Source: a phage | Direction: 5' to 3' (one strand) | Length of the DNA stretch: 64,000 nt | Sequence record: NC_102531.1 | Part shown: in pieces, positions 22,478-37,486 of the stretch | Layout: every line of letters starts with the position of its first letter | How positions within the stretch are numbered: position 1 is the first letter of the stretch | Made by a program: the position numbers and the translations under genes | The notes under the pieces: model-generated | Database searches by the model: none | What the model was told of the DNA's origin: nothing | What the model saw: the letters and a program-made list of their open reading frames with translations, nothing else

Positions 22478-24556
22478 TTAAAAAGGCGTTTCATCGTCCT
22501 CAAAACCAGGAATCTGGTCAGAGGATGGATCATCGTACTGGAGGTCTTCCTGCGTGTCAACAGGCTTAACAGTAGGAGTTACAACCTTATCAGCCACAAC
22601 CTTGCCCATAGGTGTTTCTACAACTGCATGCTCCTGATCCTCAAACATGGCCTGAGGTCTCCAAACAACCTCCCCACCTTCTCCGTCTGTAAACATTTGC
22701 ATTTCTTTGTCCCAGTACCAATTACTGGCATCATGGAACTTACCTGTGTGCGGGTCCATAACTAGAGTGTCAGCAATACCTAAAGTTTTTGCTGGACGGT
22801 TTTTAAGACCTACCAGACGGACACGCCCACGAGAACGATCCACCATTTCTTCGGCCTCGACACCTATGACTACCCAACTCAACTGTTCAAGCCCAGCCGA
22901 TCCTCGCAAATTCTCTTTTCGCACAGGATACCAGAAAGGTAACGGGTTACCATCCTTGTCCTTAGGAGGCACAATCTCTGTACGTTTGAGGTGAGCAATC
23001 ACTAAGATAAACACGTTAAACTGCTTACAAAACGCAGCCAGTTGGGTCATAGCCATGTCCAGTTCTTTTCGCTCATCCTTAACATTAAGACCTGAAATTA
23101 CCATGGACAGGTGATCCAGTACAATATAACGACAATGGTACAGGCAAACCATTTGCTTAAGCTTAGTAATCAACTCGTCCACCGGAATAGATCCGAAATG
23201 TTTGAACACTTTGATTTTTCCAGCTTTTGCCCATGATTGGTGAATCTCTGCGTGTTCTTGATCAGTTAAAAACTGGCTAGGGTCTTCAACAAACTCTTTA
23301 ACATCAAACCCTAACTGGTTTGCATACAAGGAGTTAATTGCTTCCTCTGGGTCCTCCTCAAGATGGATCATGCATAGACGATCATCCTCTTCGTAGTCAT
23401 CGGCCTTCGGACATGTCGGGTCCATTAGGTATCTTGCAATACAGTGTTCCAGTTTTTTAGCTACGGTTGTTTTACCGCCACCTGACGGACCTGTAAGCAT
23501 TACGAGTGTCCCTTTGTGCAAGCCTTTTAGCATTTTTTGCAGTTTTGGGAACTCTGCGCTGATATCTACCCCGTTGGAAGTCTTTTTCCGCAAAGACTCG
23601 ATAGAGAAGTCTTCTAAATCCGACACAGCATCAGGCACATATTTAACAGGGTGCCGAAACATGTTGACAATATCTTCTAGCTTTTTAGCCTTCAGCATGT
23701 CACGGATATCTTTTACACCGTCAGGATCGTTTACCTCACCGGGATATTCTACGTGGTAAACGTTATCAGCCATCAAAAATGCTGCGATATTGTGAGTGGC
23801 CTCAACACCTTTAATGACGTGTTTTTGCTTTTCTACCTCGTTAGCTGCATCGTTATCCATTGCCAGCACAACTGTTCCATAGCTACGGATAAACTTCTCA
23901 TTGTTTGCAAAAGTATCTACTGCGTTTGCACATCCACAGTTAATTCCAACAAAAGGTAGGCAGGGTTTTCCTGCCAGATCACCACCGTTGATAACTGCAT
24001 CGATCCCGTCCTGGACCTCTTTAGCCCACTGCTTGACCTTTGCCGGGGCTTTAGCGTTGGTGAGAATCCCTTTTACCTGTATCTGATATGCAGCTTGCCA
24101 TGCTGCAATAACATCTCCTTCCCCCTCACAGACGTTAATCTGCTTGCGGTTGTTAGAGGATGCACACAGCTTTTGACCAAACATCTGAGAGTTAGCCTTT
24201 ACTATGCCTACTACAGACCAGTGTCCTTTCTGCTCTTTCGGCTTAGACCAATCACGTTTTTTGAAACCAGACAGATTCCCGTAGCGGTCGTAATATGGGA
24301 AATATGTTGCAGTAACTGTCACACCGTCTTCTTGGGACAATGCTGATCGCACACCAAAATATTGTGCAGCCATCAGACCGATATTTTGTTGTGGGACAGG
24401 GACAATTTTAGTATTTTCTAAAACAGTCTCTACAGTTTCAACTTCTTTTTCATCACGATAGTCTCGTTTCACACTTCCCCCACTTTTATACTTAGTTGCT
24501 TTCGGGTTTGGCTCACCGAAACGGTTGTATGCAGATGCCATAAATTTACTTCCCAT
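22478..24556 (-). CDS. Primase-helicase (DnaB-type helicase domain), T7 gp4-like
   Basis: Walker A LTGPSGGGKTT, Walker B-like DHLSM; N-terminal primase-like region; adjacent to the polymerase. Confidence 0.8.
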   Translation of the reverse strand: MGSKFMASAYNRFGEPNPKATKYKSGGSVKRDYRDEKEVETVETVLENTKIVPVPQQNIGLMAAQYFGVRSALSQEDGVTVTATYFPYYDRYGNLSGFKKRDWSKPKEQKGHWSVVGIVKANSQMFGQKLCASSNNRKQINVCEGEGDVIAAWQAAYQIQVKGILTNAKAPAKVKQWAKEVQDGIDAVINGGDLAGKPCLPFVGINCGCANAVDTFANNEKFIRSYGTVVLAMDNDAANEVEKQKHVIKGVEATHNIAAFLMADNVYHVEYPGEVNDPDGVKDIRDMLKAKKLEDIVNMFRHPVKYVPDAVSDLEDFSIESLRKKTSNGVDISAEFPKLQKMLKGLHKGTLVMLTGPSGGGKTTVAKKLEHCIARYLMDPTCPKADDYEEDDRLCMIHLEEDPEEAINSLYANQLGFDVKEFVEDPSQFLTDQEHAEIHQSWAKAGKIKVFKHFGSIPVDELITKLKQMVCLYHCRYIVLDHLSMVISGLNVKDERKELDMAMTQLAAFCKQFNVFILVIAHLKRTEIVPPKDKDGNPLPFWYPVRKENLRGSAGLEQLSWVVIGVEAEEMVDRSRGRVRLVGLKNRPAKTLGIADTLVMDPHTGKFHDASNWYWDKEMQMFTDGEGGEVVWRPQAMFEDQEHAVVETPMGKVVADKVVTPTVKPVDTQEDLQYDDPSSDQIPGFEDDETPF

Positions 24557-25340
24557 TAATTCTGCTCCTTACTGCAGGCTCGTTTGCTAAGAATACAGCT
24601 TTTGCCCAGCCACGGGGTGTGAGGCTTCGAATCATCTTTGTTCTTGCACTCTTTCCCCCCAGCTTGGCGTGTTGCATGGAATACCCGCTAACCGCGTCAA
24701 CTATTTGCGGGACAGGTTTTGTGGCCGGGATTATAAATCCATTACCTATCCAGCCGCAAGTTATTTTTGGATAGGCATCACGTGGAGCTATAAATTCAGG
24801 AAACCAGGGGTTTACATCATCCTCCGGTAAATACCCGCCATAATCAGAAGGGTGAAAACGGTAATCAGGTTTGCGCCACAGCGTGGACATAACACCCACA
24901 GGATTCTCTACATGCCACGGGCAATCGTAAATCTCTCCCAACTCTTCTGCAACCCGAGCATCCTTTACAGCGTTAATCTGGATCAGCGGGTCCTTAGCCA
25001 GCTTCTTCTTAAAGTGTGCAGCACCTGACACCGCTAAGTGGGTGCACGGAGGAAATGCAAGAACAAAGTCCGGAGCTGGGTACATGCAGAAAGTTTCCTG
25101 AGGGAACCATGGATCAATCCAATAATCTACATAGTGAATATTTGGATGATCGGTGATCACCTCTGCATAACTGCCGTGGTCAGCACCTTCTGCGTTAAAG
25201 CACAGGCACAGATATCCAGCTTTTGCCCAGTCAATGACTGCACCGCCAGATCCGTCAAACAGACTCCACACAACACCTTTGTGGTAGTGTTCTTTATAGA
25301 TAAATTTCAATTTGCTGTCTCCTAATGCAAAAAGCCCCAC
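24546..25340 (-). CDS. Compact C5-cytosine methyltransferase-like protein (264 aa) with variant catalytic motif
   Basis: Motif I SLFDGSGG, motif IV FPPCTHLAVSG (PCT instead of PCQ), motif VI HVENPVG; too short for a normal target-recognition domain. Confidence 0.5.
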   Translation of the reverse strand: MGLFALGDSKLKFIYKEHYHKGVVWSLFDGSGGAVIDWAKAGYLCLCFNAEGADHGSYAEVITDHPNIHYVDYWIDPWFPQETFCMYPAPDFVLAFPPCTHLAVSGAAHFKKKLAKDPLIQINAVKDARVAEELGEIYDCPWHVENPVGVMSTLWRKPDYRFHPSDYGGYLPEDDVNPWFPEFIAPRDAYPKITCGWIGNGFIIPATKPVPQIVDAVSGYSMQHAKLGGKSARTKMIRSLTPRGWAKAVFLANEPAVRSRINGK

Positions 25341-25355
25341 CCTTTCGGGCAGGGC
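25326..25355 (-). terminator. Intrinsic terminator, second copy of the GAAA-tetraloop hairpin
   Basis: Identical 22-nt hairpin to 15212..15233, followed by TTTTTGCA. Confidence 0.6.
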
Positions 25356-25361
25356 CTAGTG

Positions 25362-25844
25362 TTAAACCCGGATACCTATTGTATACTCGGTGGATACCAA
25401 TGTCAAATCTAAATTTAAAATTTCTTGCATCTCATAATATGCGTCCAGGGTGAGATACATTTCCCCATCCTTTTCTACATACTTGTCAAGGTGTTTGAGG
25501 CACTTTGGATAACTATCAAGTGCAGCTTTCAGACACTCAAATTCTGTGCTGTTGATGAATCCTTCCATCTTGGCTACCCGTTCTGGAGTAACGATAGCAC
25601 TGTAGTGAGATTTAGCTTCCTGAATGCAATGGGTCCAAGCATCAACTTTCTCTTCGAAAAGTCCGAAGAACTTCTTTTTGGTGAGCTTCAGATTCTTTAA
25701 GTGCTTAAGCACTCGGTTGCCGATCACAGCCACATCACGAAACTTAAGGATCACTTTGTCGATATCCTCGCGGCCTATTTTCACAAAGCAAGCTTCACAC
25801 ATTTCAGGAGCTGCGTAACCTACTTTCCACATAAAATCTGACAT
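25362..25844 (-). CDS. Hypothetical protein (160 aa)
   Basis: ORF. Confidence 0.5.
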   Translation of the reverse strand: MSDFMWKVGYAAPEMCEACFVKIGREDIDKVILKFRDVAVIGNRVLKHLKNLKLTKKKFFGLFEEKVDAWTHCIQEAKSHYSAIVTPERVAKMEGFINSTEFECLKAALDSYPKCLKHLDKYVEKDGEMYLTLDAYYEMQEILNLDLTLVSTEYTIGIRV

Positions 25845-25856
25845 AACACTATCTCC

Positions 25857-26255
25857 TTATTCTTCCTGAAAAGCTATGATATCATATGAACTTGCAGATG
25901 ATCCTGGTGAAGAATGACTCCAGTCCAGGTCATCAGAGTAGTCAGCGTACTGTGCACCGCTACGTAGTTTGTATTTTACCCACTTACCTGGTGCAGGGTT
26001 TTCACCACCTTCCCATACTTCCCAGCCTTCTGGCAGGCCGTCCTGAGCATAGTCATCCACCTCACTAATGATCTTAGGGTTTGGCACCAAGATCCCCGCA
26101 GGCTCTTCCTTCCGGATAAGTGTCCACACAGCGTAGGTATCTGAGCAGGCGCATGATAGCAAAGTATATCCACTATTCAGAACTTCTGCAAGCTCTTTTT
26201 CAGCATCTTCCAATTTAGTTAAGTGGTATTGGATAATCTTCACACCTGTAATCAT
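25857..26255 (-). CDS. Hypothetical protein (132 aa)
   Basis: ORF. Confidence 0.5.
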   Translation of the reverse strand: MITGVKIIQYHLTKLEDAEKELAEVLNSGYTLLSCACSDTYAVWTLIRKEEPAGILVPNPKIISEVDDYAQDGLPEGWEVWEGGENPAPGKWVKYKLRSGAQYADYSDDLDWSHSSPGSSASSYDIIAFQEE

Positions 26256-26599
26256 CAGAAACCTCCCACTTCTTCAGCAAATGCAGCTGCTGTCGTCGCT
26301 GCATCCAGATAGGACTCCAGTTCACGGGCTGCACGTTTGTAAATTGAGTGTCGCAAATCGTTTGGCAGTTGGTGGAAGTCCACCTCTTCACCGTTGTGGT
26401 AAACATGCACATCGGTAATTTGTCTAAATCCGTAATAGTCAACATCAGAATCACGGCACTCCGGGTCTGGCAACTGGACAACTGCCTGAGCTTCTACAGT
26501 AAACATATCGTCAAGTTCGAAATCGATTTCAAAAGTGTATGGTTTATAACGTTTCATCATTTGATTGTACTCTTTATTGATCAGACATATCTTTCGCAA
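26255..26599 (-). CDS. Hypothetical protein (114 aa)
   Basis: ORF. Confidence 0.5.
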   Translation of the reverse strand: MRKICLINKEYNQMMKRYKPYTFEIDFELDDMFTVEAQAVVQLPDPECRDSDVDYYGFRQITDVHVYHNGEEVDFHQLPNDLRHSIYKRAARELESYLDAATTAAAFAEEVGGF

Positions 26600-27899
26600 T
26601 TAAGGCCGGGGTAAGTTTGTAATAACGGAAGCCACCACCACCTTGCCAGTTTACAGACTTGGAAATACCACCTTGATCTTCGCCATCGATCACTTTTTCC
26701 AAGCGCGGAATAATATGGGTATGACAATGATCACCCAGTTCGATCAAGATCCAACGTCTTTTCATTTTGTGAGCTACAGCAGCAGTAGTTCCCGAACCAC
26801 CGAATGAATCCAATACCAAATCGCCTTCTCGCGTACACATTTCGAAAATCCGCTTCAAAAGCGCTTCTGGTTTTTTCCCATTTTTGAAACTAACGCCACC
26901 TTCATTTGCTATTCCATTCCAACTAATATCTGTCCAAACATCAGTTATTAGTTCCGCAGGCTGCATCTCACCGTCAATTTCCAAAAGCCTATTGGAGTAA
27001 AAGACCATTTGCCTACCATTTGCGATATAAAATCCTTCAACATCCTCATTTGGATGTACATAAACCTTATCCTTATCTTTCTTTGACTTCTCGATAGTTT
27101 CTTTTCTCTTTATTTTAGCACCACCACCAATTGCAACAGATTGAAATACACGTTCTGCATTATCAATTGCGAATTGTGCTAATTCATCATCGAATGTGTC
27201 AGGCAGTTTTTTCTTGGCTTCTTTTGCATCTTTATAGCCATTGGCCTTTGCAAACGCATCGGCAATACCGCACCACGTCCAATTTTTATAATGGTCATCC
27301 GGGTTTAATAGGTATTTGTTATATCCTGTATCATACCCTTTAGGTATATAGATTTTGTTAAGCGGTTTCTGGGTGCGATCTTTTGCATATACAAGCAAAA
27401 AGTTTGCTGTGGAGAAAACTGTGGCTCCTGTTGCCTTAAATCCCGAAGGGGAATTTGTGGTCATCGATATGGTAGTTAACTGATTTGCACGACCAAAAAT
27501 CTCGTCCATCAAAACTTTTAAATACGCCATTTCGCAATCATCTAAGTGAACGAATATTACCCCATCATCACTTAGAAGATTACGAATTATTTCTAACCTA
27601 TCCCTCATTAAGCCCAGCCAAATGGAATGCTCAAGGCTATCATCGTAGTGCTCAAAAGCCCTTCCAGTATTGAATGGTGGGTCTATGTAAACACACTTCA
27701 CTTTGCCTGCATACTCTTGCTCTAGCGCCTTCAATGCTAATAAGTTATCTCCAAAAATCAGTTTATTATCAAAAATATCGTTTTCGGTCACTTTCTGGCT
27801 GTGGTAAGACTTGCTAGAATCTTCTAACAAAATGTGCGGCTCTAACTTTTTGCGCTCGTTTTTACCTATCCAGGTTAGTTCTAATTTGGTTTTACTCAT
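26574..27899 (-). CDS. DNA methyltransferase, Mod-like, probably N6-adenine; no partner endonuclease recognised
   Basis: LIFGDNLLALKAL then VYIDPPFNTG (motif IV) and C-terminal SFGGSGTTAAVA (motif I), i.e. beta-class order. Confidence 0.8.
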   Translation of the reverse strand: MSKTKLELTWIGKNERKKLEPHILLEDSSKSYHSQKVTENDIFDNKLIFGDNLLALKALEQEYAGKVKCVYIDPPFNTGRAFEHYDDSLEHSIWLGLMRDRLEIIRNLLSDDGVIFVHLDDCEMAYLKVLMDEIFGRANQLTTISMTTNSPSGFKATGATVFSTANFLLVYAKDRTQKPLNKIYIPKGYDTGYNKYLLNPDDHYKNWTWCGIADAFAKANGYKDAKEAKKKLPDTFDDELAQFAIDNAERVFQSVAIGGGAKIKRKETIEKSKKDKDKVYVHPNEDVEGFYIANGRQMVFYSNRLLEIDGEMQPAELITDVWTDISWNGIANEGGVSFKNGKKPEALLKRIFEMCTREGDLVLDSFGGSGTTAAVAHKMKRRWILIELGDHCHTHIIPRLEKVIDGEDQGGISKSVNWQGGGGFRYYKLTPALIAKDMSDQ

Positions 27900-27960: not shown

Positions 27961-28302
27961 CTACTCAAGGTCTTCAGAGTCAAGCTCAAAAAGAATCAAA
28001 CTGTGCATACCTGCAGAGAGATTAACACACCCTGCAACAATAAGGGTTTGATAGTAAGGTTCAGCACCCTCGATGTCTTCGTTAAAATCCACAACAAGAT
28101 AGTCACCTTTGTTAAAGGTGTATTTGTCCGATGTAAACGCAAAACCTGCCCAGTCCCCTACTGCAGGATCTTTATCAGTCACCTTTGTCAGCAGTAGATC
28201 TTTTTCACGAGATCTTTTAGTAAAATCGTGAATCACGACATCCTTCTCTTCAGGAGTTGGATTGCCACACACGTAGTTAACTATATTTCTCCACAAACTC
28301 AT
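27961..28302 (-). CDS. Hypothetical protein (113 aa)
   Basis: ORF. Confidence 0.45.
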   Translation of the reverse strand: MSLWRNIVNYVCGNPTPEEKDVVIHDFTKRSREKDLLLTKVTDKDPAVGDWAGFAFTSDKYTFNKGDYLVVDFNEDIEGAEPYYQTLIVAGCVNLSAGMHSLILFELDSEDLE

Positions 28303-36311: not shown

Positions 36312-36590
36312 TTAGGCAATTGTCATTTTACATTCTTGAAATTTTAACACAAGACGGTGATTGTGTCTAGTGTCTAAAAAGATTTTTTCAACCATCAGGC
36401 ACACGGTATAACCGTCCATCTTGTTGACAACAAAATCTCCAGGATGAGGGAGGATGTCTCCCGGATTGGGGAAACATAGTCCACTCAGAAAGGCATCGTC
36501 AGTGGTGGACTTAATAGATTTCCACACACTGTCTGCCTGAACATGTTCGCCGACGTAATATACATTACCACATGCCTTCATCATAGTCAA
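36312..36590 (-). CDS. Hypothetical protein (92 aa)
   Basis: ORF. Confidence 0.45.
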   Translation of the reverse strand: MTMMKACGNVYYVGEHVQADSVWKSIKSTTDDAFLSGLCFPNPGDILPHPGDFVVNKMDGYTVCLMVEKIFLDTRHNHRLVLKFQECKMTIA

Positions 36591-37486
36591 ACCCTCGCAT
36601 AAATTAAACTTGTATCAGTATACTTCTTTAATGGGTAAATATCCTGTCCATAGATGCAATCATTAAACACCTCATCTACCCAAAGGCTACACTTATATCC
36701 CATCATTTCTAAAACACCCATCTCTTCTTCGGTAAACTTATCACCGCTCTTGCAAGATGTCAATACCTCATTCTGAACTCTTGCTACCTCGAAGCGGTTA
36801 TTGGCAATATCGCTATTGGCGATCAAATACTCACCTAGAGGGTGTGCGGCATTAAAGATGCACAGTGGACGGCTGACGTAATAGTCTCCGGGTGTATAAA
36901 AATTGTTGAGGTCTTTCACTAGAACATTCTTATCAGTCACTTCATTTATAACATCATGCATATCGCACATCTTTATATGTTTGAGGATTCCATCCCCCAT
37001 CACAAAATAAAAACTTGCTGAGACACTTTCGGCATAGATCTTACTAGATCCGTTGTAGTTGTATTTTACTCGGATGCTAACGGGGGTTTTTCCTGTCGCG
37101 TTAGCCATCATCCAAAGAAATGGCAGCTCATACTTCTCCTCTGAGGAAACAAAAGGTGAGGTAGCCAGAGATCGAAAACCTCCAGAGAAGTTGAAAGTTA
37201 CAGAACCGCTCCGGCGGTATGATACCGCGTATTCTACTTTTATATCGACGTACCCATTGGAATAGGTGTGTCCTTCATTATCTAAATATGTCCACTTATC
37301 AGACCCAGATACCAATCTACGCTCAATAACCTTCATCACTACAGGAATTAGTGGGTTGGTACAAACCGCTTTTGAAGTAGCTTTATCATCTAAAGCCTCG
37401 TAAATTGCAGAAAGGATGTCCCCAGCTGAAAGATTGGTTGTTATGTCCTGTTTCCACCGCGTACTAAAACTGTTAAGATTTGCCAT
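36587..37486 (-). CDS. Hypothetical protein (299 aa)
   Basis: ORF; first gene of the leftward block. Confidence 0.5.
   Translation of the reverse strand: MANLNSFSTRWKQDITTNLSAGDILSAIYEALDDKATSKAVCTNPLIPVVMKVIERRLVSGSDKWTYLDNEGHTYSNGYVDIKVEYAVSYRRSGSVTFNFSGGFRSLATSPFVSSEEKYELPFLWMMANATGKTPVSIRVKYNYNGSSKIYAESVSASFYFVMGDGILKHIKMCDMHDVINEVTDKNVLVKDLNNFYTPGDYYVSRPLCIFNAAHPLGEYLIANSDIANNRFEVARVQNEVLTSCKSGDKFTEEEMGVLEMMGYKCSLWVDEVFNDCIYGQDIYPLKKYTDTSLIYARV

Follow-up and report, generated by a model that had tools for sequence, protein, structure and literature searches.

The closest described counterpart of the gene analyzed here is a 711-bp "Dcm-like" gene of phage K42, a virus 95% identical to the BASEL phage KarlJaspers (Bas06), which was identified as the trigger of retron Ec86 (bioRxiv 10.1101/2023.08.16.553469). 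Expression of K42 Dcm raised the level of 5-methylcytosine (5mC) in the multicopy single-stranded DNA (msDNA) of Ec86, as measured by mass spectrometry coupled to liquid chromatography (LC-MS), whereas the C82A/E128A/K175A/K176A quadruple mutant, in which the residues were not tested one by one, did not, and mutation of the CCTGG site in the msDNA abolished defense (bioRxiv 10.1101/2023.08.16.553469); the result is restated in a peer-reviewed publication (PMC12916289). Here we analyze a gene on the minus strand of a 64,000-nucleotide stretch of phage DNA (NC_102531.1; hereafter, the window), for which a preliminary description, made from the sequence alone, had proposed a compact C5-methyltransferase-like product. 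With high confidence, based on comparative sequence analysis, we assign this product to the compact phage Dcm-like family (PHROG 757), as a stand-alone ("orphan") DNA cytosine-C5 methyltransferase (C5-MTase) dependent on S-adenosylmethionine (AdoMet).

The minus-strand open reading frame (ORF) 24546..25340 was verified in the window and, with its GTG start, encodes 264 aa; the start is more probably the TTG at 25310 (see below), and residue numbers refer to the resulting 254-aa protein. As the preliminary description had reported, FDGSGG, FPPCT, and ENPVG, corresponding to motifs I, IV, and VI, occur in the order and with the spacing of C5-MTases, and the codons of the latter two can be read directly from the DNA (TTT CCT CCG TGC ACC, 25055..25041; GAG AAT CCT GTG GGT, 24908..24894). 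Judging by the full-length match to PHROG 757, annotated as "DNA methyltransferase" (E = 7.9e-87; residues 10–261 of the 264-aa query), and by the 3,529 homologues found in a large protein database, nearly all of 225 to 260 aa, an ORF bearing these motifs is far from a chance occurrence. The features of the gene are the following.

24546..25310, minus strand: putative compact Dcm-like C5-cytosine DNA methyltransferase coding sequence; 254 aa, probable TTG start, stop codon TAA at 24548..24546.
25242..25259, minus strand: motif I, F18-D-G-S-G-G23, AdoMet-binding FxGxG loop; G20 and S21 nearly invariant; aligns to motif I of M.HaeIII and DNMT3B.
25041..25055, minus strand: motif IV, F86-P-P-C89-T90, with the catalytic Cys nucleophile; C89 invariant (n = 85) and equivalent to C82 of the K42/KarlJaspers Dcm.
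24894..24908, minus strand: motif VI, E135-N-P-V-G139, with the Glu that protonates cytosine N3 in C5-MTases; E135 and P137 invariant; E135 equivalent to E128 of K42 Dcm.
24750..24767, minus strand: position of motif VIII, K182-I-T-C-G-W187, replacing the QxRxR strand; K182, T184, and W187 conserved; strand 184–189 in the model.
24660..24734, minus strand: putative mini target-recognition loop I193–L217, 25 aa, "GYSxQ" class, as delimited by the loop classes; lower confidence (pLDDT 72–79) and no regular secondary structure in the model.
24594..24659, minus strand: C-terminal block G218–V239 (GGKSARTKMIRSLTPRGWAKAV), presumed counterpart of motifs IX/X; conserved residues; helices 222–229 and 233–251 in the model.

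The family to which this protein belongs is large and widely distributed. A profile search yielded 2,052 clusters at 50% identity, and tblastn detected members in 1,501 of 50,697 phage records, where most are annotated as cytosine methylases; the carriers include both lytic and temperate phages of Escherichia, Klebsiella, Salmonella, Vibrio, Pseudomonas, Xanthomonas, and Arthrobacter, and the homologues stand alone in many unrelated phage contexts. All family hallmarks, namely, a length of 225 to 260 aa, FPPCT, ENPV, and GGKS..RSLTPRG, are present in the window protein. Among 85 diverse members, no variation occurs at C89, E135, or P137, and F86, P87, N136, K182, T184, R228, S229, P232, G234, and A238 are conserved in at least 90%. 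The PCT had been viewed as a special substitution for the catalytic PCQ motif, a view that does not hold: the entire family has FPPCT(D/H/N) as its consensus (FPPCTD, FPPCTH, or FPPCTN in 178 of the 270 sequences examined), and the residue following Pro-Cys varies among proven enzymes, with DNMT3B displaying GSPCNDLS (PCN).

The KarlJaspers gene is exactly 711 bp long and encodes a near-identical counterpart of K42 Dcm; its product shares 53% identity with the window protein along the entire length (E = 4e-86), and C82, E128, and K175 of the former align to C89, E135, and K182 of the latter. By this alignment, the window protein belongs to a family with demonstrated DNA C5 methylation.

An AlphaFold2 model computed on the family alignment (mean predicted local distance difference test [pLDDT] 88, predicted template modeling score [pTM] 0.88) displays a class I AdoMet-dependent methyltransferase fold which, as a predicted structure, is closest to known C5-MTases: Foldseek retrieved DNMT3A/B at E ~1e-6, and the viral structure neighbors carry DNA-cytosine methylase annotation. 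A methyltransferase fold, on which the preliminary description had made its proposal depend, is found in this confident model. The profile search suggested there gave a divided answer, with the full-length PHROG 757 match placing the protein among DNA methylases and the Pfam model PF00145 leaving it unmatched even at E ≤ 1. Nevertheless, relatives 54% to 56% identical to the window protein (P0054, P0070, and P0072) pass PF00145 (24.7 to 28.5 bits versus a cut-off of 22, motifs I–IV only) and provide, at the sequence level, a transitive link to C5-MTases.

No separate target-recognition domain (TRD) is found between motifs VIII and IX, where bacterial enzymes have about 80 to 120 residues; the stretch separating the motif-VIII strand from the C-terminal block comprises 21 to 25 residues in the family and 25 here. 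The earlier remark that the protein is too short for a standard TRD is accordingly borne out, only about 25 residues (I193–L217) separating the motif-VIII strand from the GGKS...RSLTPRG block, and the "minimal DNA C5-methylase" that it had offered is the best explanation of a protein that combines the C5-MTase fold and motifs I, IV, and VI with a severely diminished TRD. The architecture is among the smallest of C5-MTases and raises the question of how a loop of about 25 residues reads DNA sequence. The recognition loop occurs in at least 2 sequence classes, exemplified by ...SGYSMQHAKL ("GYSxQ") in the window protein versus ...DKDNPGWAKT ("NPGW") in K42.

Several observations weigh against this assignment. 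Pfam, NCBIfam, and PADLOC models give no match to the window protein; HMMER searches of PDB sequences with the single sequence and 2 profiles were marginal (E = 0.3 to 1, motifs I–IV only); and hhalign comparisons with M.HhaI alone and with an HhaI-family profile (120 close homologues, 71% to 100% identical, the M.HhaI sequence being confirmed identical to 10mh_A) were not significant and aligned the C-terminus wrongly. The canonical QxRxR of motif VIII is not recognizable, P-K-(K/I)-T-C-x-W (family consensus PKKTCLW) standing in its place, and neither is the GN of motif X, instead of which a conserved GGKS...IRSLTPRG(F/W)A block lies ahead of the C-terminal helix. At the position of K176, the second of the Lys residues replaced in the K42 mutant, the window protein has Ile183. 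In the K42 study, CCWGG was assumed from Escherichia coli Dcm, with the msDNA-site mutation as its sole support, and no methylome or nucleoside data on rV5-like phages, the group to which the window belongs, were found in the searchable literature. Finally, the recognition loop is, by its sequence, of a different class from that of K42; therefore, the K42 specificity is not transferable to the window enzyme. Since relatives pass PF00145, the missing Pfam, NCBIfam, and PADLOC matches reflect divergence and are no argument against homology. As to the noncanonical motifs, the conserved K182 may substitute for the Arg of motif VIII, and the C-terminal block is presumed to be the counterpart of motifs IX/X: R228-S-L-T-P precedes model helix 233–251, with the profile alignment to motif X being not significant.

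The activity, target, timing, and role that we infer for this protein build on the homology, fold, and conservation of catalytic residues described above. By analogy with the C5-MTase family, AdoMet would be bound by the FDGSGG loop, Cys89 of PPCT would attack C6 of the flipped-out cytosine, and Glu135 of ENP would protonate N3; following transfer of the methyl group to C5, beta-elimination would free 5-methylcytosine. Sequence would be read by short loops rather than by a separate TRD, namely, the loop 193–217 and probably also the conserved 160–181 insert, and the catalytic domain of DNMT3 works similarly.

CCWGG as the target is only a guess, and databases that label it as such do so by assumption. 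E. coli K-12 has its own Dcm. The K42 assays were performed in MG1655, where 5mC in the msDNA remained at a low level with the empty vector (bioRxiv 10.1101/2023.08.16.553469). These two points suggest that the phage enzyme need not share the exact specificity of Dcm. In the window, CCWGG occurs 114 times, compared to 83 expected from a zero-order and 144 from a Markov model, and is neither clearly avoided nor enriched; the counts being indecisive, we draw no conclusion on the target from oligonucleotide frequencies. In the same counts, CTAG, with 64 occurrences, falls short of its Markov (126) and zero-order (240) expectations, as does GTAC, with 133 (Markov 200, zero-order 240), and GATC, with 327 occurrences, is not under-represented.

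From its position in the replication module and its overlap with the primase/helicase gene (see below), the enzyme is probably produced in the early or middle phase of infection and would probably methylate replicating phage DNA and, incidentally, host DNA. The most likely role would be self-protection against restriction enzymes that are blocked by 5mC at the target. A cost is known for the family, in that methylation can set off retron Ec86/Eco1, and knowing which phages carry which branch of the recognition loop helps to predict sensitivity to this retron.

It is improbable, but worth stating, that the GYSxQ branch is not a plain CCWGG methylase, with the conserved Arg228 close to the cofactor site accepting carboxy-S-adenosylmethionine (Cx-SAM) or another AdoMet analogue, or with a very short motif being modified at high density; if true, Vequintavirus DNA would be in an undescribed cytosine modification state. 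The broader possibility raised in the preliminary description, that the same Cys chemistry serves another base modification, for example, transfer of a carboxymethyl group from Cx-SAM, as by CmoX, to yield 5-carboxymethylcytosine or a hypermodification precursor, appears very unlikely. CmoX, the only natural precedent found for such chemistry, is defined by SPPC, an Arg at the position of HhaI Asn304 that binds the Cx-SAM carboxylate, and co-occurring phage CmoA and amide ligase (PMC12783734). The conserved Arg228 beside the presumed motif X leaves some slight doubt, but our best gapless match puts Ser229 rather than Arg228 at the Asn304 position (an equivalence that hhalign did not fix), and the window protein has FPPC instead of SPPC. 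Furthermore, the K42 member of the same family, 53% identical, yields 5mC by LC-MS, and no CmoA, amide ligase, or TET gene is annotated in the 97%-identical JohannBauhin genome (by annotation only, many of its ORFs being hypothetical). Vequintavirinae were found to be "exceptionally susceptible" to restriction-modification systems in the BASEL study, which argues against dense or bulky DNA modification.

A protein that has lost catalysis and retains only DNA or AdoMet binding, for instance, as a regulator or decoy, would agree with the noncanonical motifs VIII and X, the Ile at the position of K42 K176, and the lack of direct activity data for rV5-like phages. We regard it as very improbable too, given that the catalytic Cys and Glu, the PPC and ENP around them, and some 20 other positions vary little or not at all among highly divergent members, including all Vequintavirus orthologues, and that at least 95% protein identity is held in 115 phage records. 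A Dnmt2-type RNA (tRNA) cytosine-C5 methyltransferase is more doubtful still: DNA C5-MTases outscore Dnmt2 in both fold searches, the characterized family member methylates DNA, and the family resides in replication or nin-type DNA-metabolism modules. Least credible is the modification half of a restriction-modification system. A Mod-like gene for a type III methyltransferase does lie 1.3 kb away (PADLOC MTase_III, E = 1.7e-204), but among the neighbors (helicase, primase/helicase, polymerase, and small unknown ORFs) there is neither an annotated nor a detectable restriction endonuclease or Res gene, no PADLOC restriction-modification model matches the protein, and its homologues stand alone in many phage contexts.

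The window represents an rV5-like coliphage of the genus Vequintavirus, 97% identical to phage JohannBauhin, and the 6.5-kb stretch around the gene shares 97% identity with about 80 rV5-like coliphages of this genus. The orthologues in BASEL phages (JohannBauhin, MaxBurger, and others) are 98% to 99% identical at the protein level and already labeled "Dcm-like C5 cytosine methyltransferase," other records use "Dcm," "DNA methyltransferase," or "putative DNA cytosine methyltransferase," and the gene is kept at protein identities of at least 95% in those 115 records. Neither the gene nor its family is new, both having been annotated before, and the preliminary description is a correct rediscovery that adds little. 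Sixteen records named "Campylobacter phage" (host Campylobacter jejuni; MG065635, MG065647, and others) are about 97% identical to the rV5-like coliphages in this comparison, and the names or hosts of these 16 look doubtful.

Some relatives depart from the usual gene structure. In JohannBuxtorf_Bas84 (PQ850611.1, 26839..27481), a family member is matched in 2 pieces annotated "DNA methyltransferase (x2) | HNH endonuclease," and a homing-endonuclease insertion seems to interrupt the gene. In a 563-aa protein (P0270), the compact C5-like domain is joined to an adenine methyltransferase of the D12 class (Dam-like; Pfam E = 2.5e-48), and in a 1,397-aa protein of an uncultured phage (BFVD A0A6J5SE15_1) it lies within a helicase-containing giant protein. 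Gene 10 of phage PVP-SE1, which carries the same note as gene 9, was considered as a second compact methylase and rejected, as hhalign revealed no similarity.

The expression signals around the gene bear on both its start codon and its timing.

25319..25323, minus strand: Shine-Dalgarno-like AGGAG, 8 nt before the TTG, read from the sequence.
25311..25340, minus strand: ten extra codons of the 264-aa ORF, probably untranslated 5' leader; GTG in the hairpin, no homologue covering them.
25332..25357, minus strand: terminator-like hairpin between the upstream ORF and the methyltransferase gene; 11-bp stem with 7 GC, GAAA loop, T-run.
25378..25406, minus strand: sigma-70-like promoter TTGACA-17-TACAAT in the 3' end of the upstream ORF; 11/12 matches.
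24546..24556, minus strand: 11-nt overlap of the methyltransferase 3' end with the primase/helicase ATG, from the ORF coordinates.

The TTG at 25310 (254 aa) is probably the start rather than the GTG at 25340, because the AGGAG (25323..25319) read 8 nt 5' of it provides a ribosome-binding site, the GTG sits within the 3' arm of the hairpin (25357..25332), the orthologous coding sequence of JohannBauhin (bas53_0073) is 765 bp long (254 aa), and the N-terminus of a 79%-identical homologue (P0002) begins at the position aligned with this TTG. A further homologue cluster (P0001) likewise measures 254 aa, and none of the aligned homologues extends over the ten extra codons.

Read along the minus strand, the promoter (25406..25378) is followed by the hairpin with its T-run, the ribosome-binding site, and the TTG, and, at the other end, the ATG of the primase/helicase gene (22478..24556) overlaps the final 11 nt of the methyltransferase gene. 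The overlap suggests that the gene is co-transcribed or translationally coupled with the replication module, and, together with the promoter and hairpin signals, which are consensus matches, it suggests that the gene is expressed along with the replication genes. The promoter is recognized by consensus similarity only, such sites being no more numerous in this region than in shuffled sequence. With its 11/12 matches, it lies only about 20 nt upstream of the strong hairpin (25332..25406, minus strand), such that transcripts would start with the hairpin, which could terminate transcription of the upstream ORF, act as an attenuator, or stabilize the 5' end.

The gene order on the minus strand is helicase, small ORF, Mod-like N6-adenine methyltransferase, three small ORFs, the C5-MTase gene, primase/helicase, and DNA polymerase. 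The three small ORFs (25362..25844, 25857..26255, and 26255..26599) had been suggested as possible partners of the methyltransferase, a suggestion that finds no support: in tblastn searches they matched only the near-identical phage, except that the third ORF was weakly matched (E = 3e-6) in PVP-SE1, a related Salmonella phage, and none of them was found beside the family members of 4 other phage groups (KarlJaspers, mEp021, a Krischvirus, and an Arthrobacter phage). The methyltransferase travels alone while its neighbors change with the phage lineage, and the three ORFs are syntenic neighbors, not family partners. Their strong matches are exclusively to PHROGs of unknown function, those to annotated PHROGs being weak. 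The small ORFs 25857..26255, 26255..26599, and 27961..28302 (minus strand) show weak PHROG likeness to parts of "DNA ligase" (phrog_10384, 2e-6; phrog_10936, 1.5e-4) and to the "DNA methyltransferase" phrog_1573 (4e-5), which probably reflects small shared domains.

The Mod-like gene (26574..27899, minus strand) matches the PADLOC type III methyltransferase model (E = 1.7e-204) and Pfam N6_N4_Mtase and is without a Res partner. In the sibling phage Bas51, a GATC adenine methylase triggers the retrons Asa1/Squ1, with mutations D69G, D79G, and T83P (PMC12548924). Identity of the Mod-like gene with this methylase was considered and rejected, as the mutated positions are C69, G79, and E83 here; from this mismatch, the GATC methylase is probably one of the two other N6-adenine methylases of these phages, both located outside the window. 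Elsewhere in the window, ORF 36587..37486 (minus strand) maps by coordinates to the "putative 1-3 fucosyltransferase" gene of JohannBauhin and has no Pfam match at E ≤ 0.01.

Comparison with described enzymes places the window protein as follows. M.HhaI, M.HaeIII, and E. coli Dcm (PF00145) have in common with it the fold, the order of motifs I, IV, and VI, and the presumed Cys/Glu chemistry, but the window protein is about 70 to 220 residues shorter, without a separate TRD or a recognizable QxRxR or GN. SpCmoX, the DNA cytosine C5-carboxymethyltransferase of Synechococcus phage S-B43 (PDB 8yf3), is about 350 aa or more in length, as indicated by its numbered Arg-350 (the 8yf3 chain has 333 residues), and its characteristic SPPC, phage CmoA, and ligase were not found for the window protein. 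The nearest structural analogue is the catalytic domain of DNMT3A/DNMT3B, which is only 12% to 15% identical to the window protein; DNMT3 is likewise an enzyme type with a minimal recognition region, but differs in being eukaryotic, in forming an oligomer with regulatory domains, and in targeting CpG. No solved structure of a family member was found in PDB sequence searches. The closest resemblance is to the K42/KarlJaspers Dcm, which is similar in size (236 versus 254 aa), carries PPCT, ENPV, and the C-terminal GGKS..RSLTPRG block, and, as in the window, is encoded by a stand-alone phage gene beside replication genes; the two differ in the virus group (Drexlerviridae versus Vequintavirinae), the recognition loop (NPGW versus GYSxQ), and the residue at the second mutated position (K176 versus Ile).

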